64,000 bases of DNA, taken from NCBI RefSeq assembly GCF_030013205.1, contig NZ_CP122648.1. One strand, written 5' to 3'. Below the pieces are notes generated by a model that was not told the origin of the DNA, made no database searches, and worked only from the letters and a program-made list of their open reading frames with translations. The stretch's first letter is position 1. Each line of letters opens with the position of its first letter. The DNA is from Escherichia coli (lineage in GTDB: Bacteria; Pseudomonadota; Gammaproteobacteria; Enterobacterales; Enterobacteriaceae). Below are positions 50,011-51,384 of the stretch, piece after piece. A program made the position numbers and the translations under genes.

Positions 50011-51384
50011 TTATTTCAACGCTTCCGGCAGCGTCACAATCCACAGTTCACTGTCAGACTCCGGTTTCTCCAGTGGCTTCACTCTGAGGGTCGTTTCAAC
50101 CTGCTTGTCGTCAAGCGTCAGCTTTCCTTCCGCGTTCACCCGATAATCCTTGAATGTCTTGCCCTCGACCGGATGTTGCATCGCCACCTTCACGCCAAAG
50201 TCGTTATCGTTCGCCACCGCCAGCGTTTTGCTGTCGATCAGCGCCAACCCTTCAGCCTTCTCCTGCTGCCAGCCCAAGGAGCGCAGATCAACAACCTGCG
50301 TTTTCTGCGCAAGGGTAATGCCGCGCTGTGACAGGGTTTTCTCATCATCAAACTCCGGATACTCACCCGGCTTGTCGAAGCCTGACAGGTCGCTCGCCTT
50401 ATTGAGATCGACCTCGTAAATCAGGTTACGCATTCTGTTGTTTTTATCTCTTCCCTGTTCGATCAGCAGGATGTGCTGGTTATCGAGCGCCACGATGTCT
50501 CCGATTTTAGCGTCGCTGTTTTTGCTGTAGGCCGCGCTGTCGATAGGATAACCGTACATCGCGGTTTTTCCGCTTGCCGGATCGAAGCTCACCAGACGCG
50601 TAAACAGCGCCTTTTTCTTGCTCTTAGCGTCGATATCCAGCGTACTTTGCACGGCGACAATAATACGCCCGTCCGGCATACGGGTGAGGCCTTCAAAGCC
50701 GCGGTTCGCCTGACGCCATTTGAGGATATTTGGCAAACCGCCCGCAATCGCTTTTTCCCCTTCCGCCGCCTGCGGACCGTGGATTGCCAGGATTTTCCCT
50801 TTACTGTCGATGTTAATCAGGAACGGGCCATACTCATCGCACAGCCAGTAACCTCCTTTACCATCCGGAGTGATCCCTTCCGTATCCAGCCCGCGATTAT
50901 CCCCCTTCAGTCTATGTAACGTGTCGCTGAAGGCCACTTCATTGGTGGAGCCAATCACGTCGCTTGCCAGCGGCAGACCGTTGATCGCGCCTTTATCGTC
51001 ATGCAGAGGACGGGGATCGATGGCCTCCGCTTTGCCGTTTTGTACACGAATCGTCATCAGCAGCGGCGCGAAATCTGGCGTAACGAAAATTTTAGTTTCG
51101 TTTTTCCCCTCTTTCGGTGAATCCGCGTTCGGACCGCGATCGGTAATGGTTGCGAATGTCAGGGCATCGCCCTGTTTACCGGTGAACAGCAGGCCAGAAC
51201 CTATCCCAACCGGAAGGCCGTTCGGGAATGCACTGGCAAATGCGCCGGCGTAGTTCACGTGCGTGCCTTCTGGAAAACTGACGACATAGCGCTCAGCCGT
51301 AGGTTGTGCCGCCAGGGCAGAGAAAGAGAGCGTACAACCGATTAGCACGGGAATAATTTTTCTTTTCATATTGTTAGCATCCAT
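50011..51384 (-). CDS. Secreted phytase-like (esterase-like activity of phytase family) beta-propeller protein, probable lipoprotein
   Basis: 457-aa ORF; N-terminal signal with LIGC lipobox-like motif; start may be the internal MKRKIIP. Confidence 0.45.
   Translation of the reverse strand: MDANNMKRKIIPVLIGCTLSFSALAAQPTAERYVVSFPEGTHVNYAGAFASAFPNGLPVGIGSGLLFTGKQGDALTFATITDRGPNADSPKEGKNETKIFVTPDFAPLLMTIRVQNGKAEAIDPRPLHDDKGAINGLPLASDVIGSTNEVAFSDTLHRLKGDNRGLDTEGITPDGKGGYWLCDEYGPFLINIDSKGKILAIHGPQAAEGEKAIAGGLPNILKWRQANRGFEGLTRMPDGRIIVAVQSTLDIDAKSKKKALFTRLVSFDPASGKTAMYGYPIDSAAYSKNSDAKIGDIVALDNQHILLIEQGRDKNNRMRNLIYEVDLNKASDLSGFDKPGEYPEFDDEKTLSQRGITLAQKTQVVDLRSLGWQQEKAEGLALIDSKTLAVANDNDFGVKVAMQHPVEGKTFKDYRVNAEGKLTLDDKQVETTLRVKPLEKPESDSELWIVTLPEALK

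Follow-up and report, generated by a model that had tools for sequence, protein, structure and literature searches.

The beta-propeller phytases of Bacillus (PF02333, PhyC/TS-Phy) are Ca2+-dependent and release phosphate. The alkaline phosphatases PhoX and Psip1 are six-bladed exported propellers with Fe3+ and Ca2+ that are induced by phosphate starvation, PhoX being exported by the Tat pathway, and propellers have been recruited more than once as phosphatases of the Pho regulon. The Pfam family PF13449 ('Phytase-like') falls into over 2000 bacterial clusters at the 50% identity level; its name is a computational label, and the word 'phytase' in it has no experimental basis here. One member is orf34 of the SRL pathogenicity island of Shigella flexneri, which lies between the ferric-citrate (fec) operon and an IS66 element (PMC6980539, Table 2). 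Here we describe the same gene in a stretch of 64,000 nucleotides (the window) from the Escherichia coli contig NZ_CP122648.1 (assembly GCF_030013205.1), and we propose, with slightly better than even confidence, that it encodes a PhoB-induced soluble periplasmic phosphoesterase.

The gene is already known and annotated (RefSeq WP_000823243.1; SRL orf34), and the locus itself is ordinary. What the present analysis adds is a conserved Pho box upstream of the gene, a predicted five-bladed fold, the exclusion of the protein from the Bacillus phytase and PhoX families, and a testable hypothesis for an uncharacterised family.

Results

A Pho box is conserved upstream of the phytase-like gene

An alignment of the upstream regions from four genera shows that the best-conserved block is a direct repeat of TGTCA-type half-sites, which reads TTGTCATCAAATTGTCAT in Serratia, ATATCATTTTACTGTCAT in Pantoea, ATGTCATTTTTCTGACAC in Enterobacter and ATGTCATTTTCCTGACTC in the E. 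coli window (51437-51420; Table 1). For the promoter scan, 250 nt upstream of each of 68 orthologous loci from species-representative genomes and of the window's own gene were scored against CTGTCATAWAWCTGTCAY. The best match to the consensus, at 13-17 of 18 positions, was located 44-61 nt before the ATG in 67 of the 69 upstream regions, and a TAnnnT hexamer followed the orthologous boxes exactly 10 nt downstream. The background of matches of at least 14/18 was 2 in the 64-kb window (both strands), or 0.004 per 250 nt. These two matches of 14/18, the only others in the window, lie at 37492-37509 and 45086-45103 on the plus strand, the latter overlapping the start of the nanS open reading frame (ORF), and are probably due to chance. 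The conserved Pho box is new in this analysis.

The information content of 68 distinct promoters was 1.40 bits per position in half-site 1 and 1.46 in half-site 2, with 0.63 in the spacer, 0.99 in the -10 hexamer and 0.09 in the 25 nt upstream; the register was picked by the best match in a 25-nt zone, which somewhat favours the half-sites and to that extent weighs against PhoB control. The phoA and pstS promoters of K-12, read directly, consist of an 18-nt box, 10 nt and then the -10 hexamer (TATAGT in phoA, TATTTT in pstS). The window copy has the same geometry, with TGTCA-type half-sites 11 nt apart, but its second half-site is poor, and it agrees with the consensus at 12/18 against 17-18/18 for phoA and pstS. 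From this arrangement, transcription would start near 51397 and leave a 5' untranslated region of about 28 nt. Of 2272 E. coli records, 2159 (95%) share an identical 80-nt promoter with the CTGACTC allele of the second half-site. Plasmid pB27_2 carries a different allele, with a polymorphism at 51421 that gives CTGACAC as in Enterobacter.

The element that is conserved upstream is thus the Pho box at the -35 position, which the original prediction had missed in favour of a 7-bp inverted repeat as a possible regulator site. The inverted repeat does exist, one base away from where it had been placed (51485-51502), but its role as a regulator site did not hold up: shuffles of the 281-nt upstream region produced at least one inverted repeat of that size in 14-17% of cases, and the homologous stretch in Enterobacter and Lelliottia, GTTGTCACAGATAAAGAC, is not palindromic. 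A second Pho box at the inverted repeat was considered and rejected by eye, a manual count giving about 8/18 for the Enterobacter homologue. Further upstream, a short hairpin (GCGTTTAGGAAACGC, 51581-51595) matches a longer CGTTTAG...CTAAACG inverted repeat in the Enterobacter relatives; it could represent the terminator of the gene that precedes this one in the donor.

The product is predicted to be a soluble periplasmic protein

The 457-aa ORF that had been predicted is present in the six-frame ORF list, and its conserved start shortens it to 452 aa. This start is the second ATG, the sixth codon of the mechanical ORF, at 51369, and is also the start annotated by PGAP; the mechanical ORF is five codons longer, reaching 51384. 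We take 51369 as the conserved start because the closest orthologues, those of Enterobacter, and the Serratia orthologues have no in-frame ATG 5' of this codon. The 452-aa product is identical to WP_000823243.1.

The protein begins with MKRKIIPVLIGCTLSFSALA followed by AQPTAERY. Within this N-terminus, an MKRK n-region precedes the core IIPVLIGCTLSFS and an A-L-A/A junction (the slash marks the predicted cut). The basic n-region, the hydrophobic core, the small residue at position 20 and Ala21 are kept in nearly all of 60 distinct orthologue N-termini, which bears out the signal peptide in the original prediction. The N-terminus MKRKIIPV, read from the sequence, contains no twin arginine. Judged by reading the sequence together with the orthologue N-termini for a signal peptidase I site, these features indicate a soluble periplasmic protein, exported by Sec and cut after Ala20.

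The original prediction had instead seen a lipobox in the motif LIGC and called the product a lipoprotein, which would be anchored via Cys12 after a signal peptidase II cut at LIG/C. The motif L-I-G-C does resemble a lipobox core, and is present in the Enterobacter/Pantoea/E. coli clade (19 of the 60 distinct N-termini). However, the Cys is residue 12 from the conserved start, with only seven uncharged residues before it, and when counted from the upstream ATG it becomes residue 17, with K-R-K falling inside the required uncharged stretch. PROSITE pattern PS00013, which requires a Cys at position 15-35 after an uncharged stretch, fits none of the 60 distinct orthologue N-termini and does not fit the window protein from either start codon. 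Furthermore, the Cys position is occupied by T, S, A or Y in Pseudescherichia, Buttiauxella, Serratia, Yersinia, Cronobacter and one Enterobacter, and the orthologues from these genera that have T, S or A retain x-x-A/A at residue 20. A lipoprotein is therefore highly improbable.

The protein is a PF13449 member outside the Bacillus phytase and PhoX families

A Pfam scan of the window protein at E<=1 returned PF13449 as the sole match, with neither PF02333 nor PhoX PF05787. The match scored 148.6 bits, far above the curated gathering score of 27.6 (E=4.6e-43), and covered residues 60-396 and profile positions 4-284 of 284, which bears out the family that the original prediction had assigned tentatively. 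The Asp/Glu-rich blade motifs by which the family is defined are conserved in the window protein as well. Unlike the many PF13449 members that are large multidomain surface proteins, the window protein has a single domain and is predicted to be periplasmic. No NCBIfam model matched the phytase-like protein.

The AlphaFold model (pLDDT 95.1, pTM 0.91), built like the conservation analysis on an alignment of 49 homologues with 30-89% identity, is a five-bladed propeller. Across the 49 homologues, the blades carry motifs with nearly invariant acidic residues: TDRGPN, DTEG, NRGFEG, IEQG and KAEG, plus NDND. The nearly invariant positions are D77, R78, G79, N81, D162, E164, E179, N222, R223, G224, E226, D291, E304, Q305, E373, D388 and D390. 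These acidic blade motifs probably hold a divalent metal, likely Ca2+.

In the fold search, the nearest solved folds were YjiK, glutaminyl cyclase and the Ca-activated nucleotidase SCAN, and neither Bacillus phytase nor PhoX was among the top 60. Identity to human SCAN-1 (PDB 2H2N) and to the C-terminal domain of E. coli YjiK (PDB 3QQZ) was only 13-17%, and insertions and extensions beyond the core shared with them make up about half of the mature protein (430 residues). Foldseek against the PDB found just generic propellers of low TM score, phmmer against the PDB sequences found no match, and the 49-homologue profile detected only generic NHL/'Pizza' blades in the PDB and no phytase chain at E<=10.

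The window protein and the Bacillus phytases are both beta-propellers, exported (by prediction in the case of the window protein) and rich in acidic residues. Nevertheless, the window protein matches no PF02333 profile, and its five-bladed fold is not close to the solved six-bladed phytases. The 'beta-propeller phytase type' of the original prediction is thus correct as to the PF13449 family and the propeller fold, and not supported if it is taken to mean the Bacillus family. With regard to PhoX, the protein has no PF05787 match in Pfam, carries a Sec signal with no Tat motif, and has five blades in its model instead of six; PhoX was also absent from the top of the fold search. Psip1 was considered as a relative and rejected, having no conserved-domain match and a six-bladed, PhoX-like model. 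Taken together, the protein belongs to PF13449 and lies outside the Bacillus phytase and PhoX families.

Homologues and their settings point to phosphorus

Remote PF13449 homologues are fused to a 5'-nucleotidase (Metallophos and 5_nucleotid_C domains) and to a ParB-like nuclease. In some cyanobacteria, Psip1, a validated phosphatase, itself carries a fused phytase-like domain (PMC11098088). In Nodularia, a PF13449 protein annotated as 'atypical alkaline phosphatase' is up by 5.5 log2 units in the phosphorus (P)-limitation stimulon and is encoded beside a metallophosphoesterase (PMC9846622). Among four distant homologues, the only informative neighbourhood was that of a 42%-identical protein, whose gene adjoins a GDPD gene and a ugp-like ABC transporter. 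The Pho box and predicted export, the fusions, the expression under P limitation and the GDPD/ugp neighbourhood all point, indirectly, to phosphorus scavenging. The fusion partners, as read from their domains, would favour nucleotides or phosphodiesters as substrates at least as much as phytate.

A contig of a cyanobacterial metagenome-assembled genome (MAG), CAIOCZ010000074.1, has an ORF of at least 1650 aa, which stays open from position 2161 as far as the end of the 7119-nt locus. It joins the PF13449 domain to an N-terminal sequence and to a C-terminal UshA-like 5'-nucleotidase region (GNHEFD, read by eye). In its layout the protein is reminiscent of the 145-kDa 'atypical alkaline phosphatase' from Synechococcus PCC 7942. 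As to a link with the cyanobacterial and algal PhoAaty, the papers assign no domain to that group, and neither cluster names nor a search with a cyanobacterial PF13449 domain retrieved a named Synechococcus PhoA.

The gene is accessory and horizontally acquired in E. coli

The gene was found in 2261 of 5426 complete E. coli genomes (about 42%), always with at least 99% identity, and in 66 places on plasmids. In 2190 genomes the ORF was covered over at least 80% of its length, and the records inspected list a full protein. The carriers include ST131, avian pathogenic E. coli (APEC) O78, O26 and porcine enterotoxigenic E. coli (ETEC). PLSDB lists 63 Escherichia plasmids and one Salmonella plasmid with the gene, and some plasmids carry it without fec. 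Its GC content is 54% (63% at third codon positions), against 50.4% for the window. These observations agree with the suggestion of the original prediction that the gene is horizontally acquired cargo: it is accessory and not a core gene of E. coli.

The nearest orthologues outside Escherichia come from Enterobacter mori, E. asburiae and Lelliottia; their identity is 90-91% at the protein and 83-87% at the DNA level, and their synonymous divergence (dS) is about 0.55-0.75. Because the best of them are only this close, the donor is not among the sampled species. P0002 (94% identity) was tried as the donor and rejected, because it is just a deletion variant within the same island setting in E. 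coli. The ratio of nonsynonymous to synonymous divergence (dN/dS) between the E. coli copy and the Enterobacter and Lelliottia orthologues is 0.08-0.10, which indicates strong purifying selection between the E. coli copy and its relatives. The gene is real, intact and accessory in E. coli. The donor-derived DNA spans about 1.8 kb, from the end of the IS66 element (about 49810) to about 51647, at which point an alternative plasmid context, too, ceases to be homologous.

A second allele, 98.6-99.1% identical, is found on poultry plasmids of the colicin B/M type (plasmid p1 of strain Br_112_kylling; PLSDB H82-H84). It is flanked by IS1414 53 bp after the stop codon and by two small hypothetical genes upstream, has an 11-bp upstream indel, and may preserve more of the donor context. 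A copy with 99% identity on the 3-kb contig CAJKJS010000287.1, binned to an uncultured Ruminococcaceae MAG, is most likely an E. coli binning contaminant.

The gene lies in an eroded island beside the fec operon

The original prediction had described the gene as isolated between two insertion sequence (IS) fragments, in the interval where K-12 has sgc and yjhFGHI. It is not truly isolated: it has long been known as orf34 of the SRL-type fec island (PMC6980539). As in the SRL island, it has fec on one side and IS66 (orf35-37 in SRL) on the other, followed by YfjQ/YfjX/YeeS-type genes. The window differs in that its IS66 element has an internal deletion, some 2 kb is absent between the gene and fecI, and the island occupies the leuX site next to nanS instead of serX.

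The brackets themselves were correctly recognised. On the 3' side of the gene, the ORF at 49311-49772 has the Pfam domains DDE_Tnp_IS66 and DDE_Tnp_IS66_C, the C-terminal part of an IS66 transposase. The terminal inverted repeats of the element are at 49288-49314 and 49783-49809 (GTAAGCG.../...CGCTTAC), and the 3' end of tnpC is kept. Other genomes have a complete tnpA-tnpB-tnpC IS66 at the same place, to which homology begins at 49360. When the flanks of the remnant were compared, no matching target duplication was found (GCATATCT vs TTTTGTTC). On the upstream side, the IS3-family fragment is annotated by PGAP as a pseudogene (51651-51782), and is 96% identical to IS1203-type elements from 51651 to about 51827, with matches of 95-97% to IS3-family elements over 51651-51830. 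The interval proposed for K-12 also agrees with the K-12 gene order, fecI-ykiE-IS1F-yjhU-yjhFGHI-sgc...-nanS, and with the BLAST breakpoints: the match between the window and K-12 ends at 46107, the end of nanS, and resumes at 51860. Positions 49000-52100 are 100% identical to porcine ETEC/O139 chromosomes.

In other E. coli, the island is fuller. From the left, its order is backbone, the complete IS66 (tnpA-tnpB-tnpC) and the phytase-like gene, and then an IS3 fragment, an IS5 fragment, an ariR/ymgB-like gene, a further IS3 fragment, IS1F, ykiE and fecIRABCDE. Compared with this common form, 2061 bp that separate the IS3 fragment from ykiE are absent from the window (51827-51860; positions 10850-12910 of the comparison locus L087); they comprise the IS5 fragment, the ariR/ymgB-like gene, the second IS3 fragment and IS1F. 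Because of this deletion, the gene is only 700 bp from fecI, which is divergent from it, and such direct adjacency occurs in only 528 of about 2260 carrier genomes.

To the left, an eroded end of an SRL/CP4-type island (46112-49283, minus strand) abuts nanS directly. An HNH endonuclease and a piece of a phosphorothioate-sensing restriction enzyme come first in it, and then RadC/JAB, an antirestriction protein, DUF932 and DUF905, four genes that are arranged as in SRL orf48-50. Beyond fec on the right are IS3/IS30 debris, an integrase and a tRNA-Leu, the tRNA and integrase lying 12 kb past fecE. The gene is thus linked to fecIRABCDE, IS66 and YfjQ/YfjX/YeeS-type genes near a tRNA and an integrase, and from the SRL-order genes on the left and the IS debris, integrase and tRNA-Leu on the right we conclude that the whole stretch is an eroded integrative island at the leuX (KpLE2) position.

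Table 1. Coordinates of the phytase-like gene, its upstream elements and its neighbours in the window
Feature	Position	Strand	Basis or remark
ORF, 457 aa	50011..51384	minus	six-frame ORF list
PF13449 'Phytase-like' coding sequence, 452 aa from the conserved start	50011..51369	minus	Pfam, PGAP, start conservation, dN/dS
Sec signal peptide, residues 1-20, MKRKIIPVLIGCTLSFSALA/AQPT	51310..51369	minus	read from the sequence; predicted signal peptidase I cut after Ala20
-10-like hexamer TATGGT, 10 nt 3' of the Pho box	51404..51409	minus	TAnnnT at a fixed 10-nt distance in orthologues
Pho-box-like direct repeat ATGTCAT-TTTC-CTGACTC, -35 position	51420..51437	minus	degraded, 12/18 vs consensus; positional homology to the orthologous boxes
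Inverted repeat GTTGTTA-CAAA-TAACAAC	51485..51502	.	about 97 nt 5' of the putative transcription start; unlikely to be a specific site
Internally deleted IS66-family element, 522 bp	49288..49809	+	Pfam, terminal inverted repeats, comparison with the complete form
IS3-family (IS1203/IS629-like) 3' fragment, cutting off the donor DNA upstream of the gene	51651..51827	+	PGAP pseudogene, IS3-family matches
Junction with the K-12-like fecI upstream region, including ykiE	51860..52069	.	BLAST vs K-12 and vs the FDAARGOS_1280 island
fecI, first gene of fecIRABCDE	52070..52591	+	ORF and annotation; same linkage in the SRL island and other E. coli

Discussion

On the observed gene, family, fold prediction, signal-peptide features, island structure, distribution and Pho-box conservation we build a proposal in which PhoB control, metal dependence and phosphoesterase activity are conjectural. 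In the native hosts (Enterobacter, Lelliottia, Pantoea, Serratia, Buttiauxella, Cronobacter and others), the gene is a single-gene unit in which the Pho box takes the place of the -35 hexamer. Upon phosphate starvation, PhoB~P would bind the -35 box and activate transcription from about 51397 (in window coordinates). The 452-aa precursor would be exported by Sec and cut after Ala20 by signal peptidase I to give a mature protein of about 430 aa. The mature five-bladed propeller would bind a divalent metal, likely Ca2+, via the acidic blade motifs and hydrolyse an organic phosphate ester in the periplasm, and the freed phosphate would be taken up. As candidate substrates, nucleotides or phosphodiesters would be as likely as phytate. 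E. coli gained a donor piece of about 1.8 kb (about 49810-51647) with this gene and its promoter alone, a piece that now travels with the fec operon in an IS-riddled SRL-type island, here at leuX/KpLE2, and on some plasmids. In the E. coli copy, in which the second half-site is degraded, PhoB control would be weaker.

Several points weigh against this proposal. The E. coli box, at 12/18, is the weakest of the 69 and, taken alone, no better than expected by chance (P about 0.2-0.36); in its second half-site, CTGACTC is a poorer version than the CTGACAC of Enterobacter, and the upstream region has a 12-nt deletion and a 5-nt insertion compared with its relatives. The five-bladed fold is common to glutaminyl cyclase, with unrelated chemistry, and to YjiK, with no assigned function. 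The native neighbourhoods in Pantoea, Enterobacter and Serratia are variable, the gene standing alone in them, and give no functional clue. Finally, no assayed or crystallised member of PF13449 was found in the literature searched or in the PDB. The literature on PF13449, on WP_000823243 and on fecI with phytase held nothing on this protein, and no expression data for the gene were found in the literature searched. PhoB control is well supported for the family, as judged from the promoters compared, and of uncertain strength in E. coli.

If the protein is not a phosphoesterase, it could be an exported propeller, under Pho or other control, of a ligand-binding, lactonase-like, cyclase-like or YjiK-like kind. 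This has a low but appreciable probability, since the nearest solved folds are YjiK and glutaminyl cyclase, profile searches detect generic NHL-type blades alone, and no biochemical data were found for PF13449. Against it, the domain recurs across phyla with phosphorus-scavenging modules and in P-limitation regulons, the Pho box is conserved among orthologues, and each blade has a conserved acidic motif of the type seen in metal-dependent propeller hydrolases. Improbable to a greater degree is a true phytase, Ca2+-dependent and specific for phytate (InsP6), which might free iron from phytate for the adjacent ferric-citrate system. The family name in Pfam and PGAP, the persistent linkage of the gene to fec in E. 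coli and Shigella, and an orthologue listed as a 'phytase-encoding sequence' in Pantoea brenneri strains isolated on phytate (PMC12697123) would fit such an enzyme; regulation by a Pho box fits any phosphate-releasing enzyme, and the protein lies outside the Bacillus phytase family.

Another reading, which we rate as unlikely at a level between the two above, is that the gene is passive cargo in E. coli, poorly expressed and hitch-hiking with fec and IS elements with no effect on fitness. It is surrounded by IS debris, its Pho box is the poorest of those scanned and its upstream region has indels, K-12 lost the gene at no obvious cost, and recent spread alone could explain its intactness, all E. 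coli copies being so nearly identical. On the other hand, most of the ORF length is retained in the 2190 genomes, with a full protein annotated in the records inspected, the 80-nt promoter is unchanged in 95% of carriers, the gene is kept without fec on some plasmids, and the -10 hexamer TATGGT is nearer to consensus in E. coli than in its relatives, points that fall short of proving selection within E. coli.

The PhoB-induced phosphoesterase is the reading that we prefer. On a broader view, which we put forward only tentatively and regard as doubtful, the protein, single-domain and easily expressed, could be the first tractable member of a hitherto unrecognised class of enzymes, phosphatases or phosphodiesterases of phosphate starvation, built on the five-bladed, acidic, probably Ca2+-dependent PF13449 propeller. 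Such a class would be distinct from PhoA, PhoD, PhoX, PafA and Psip1, and might include the phytase-like modules of the cyanobacterial 'atypical alkaline phosphatase'; in E. coli, its member would be an accessory Pho-regulon enzyme spreading with the ferric-citrate island in pathogenic lineages. For its first description, orf34 was reportedly listed by Luck et al. in 2001 as part of the SRL island; its re-annotation is in PMC6980539.

The hypothesis is cheap and direct to test in E. coli: about 42% of the strains sequenced are carriers, and K-12 is a clean null. If the PhoB-induced phosphoesterase is true, the gene would be an accessory member of the E. coli Pho regulon, and its product would represent a new catalytic scaffold for phosphate scavenging.

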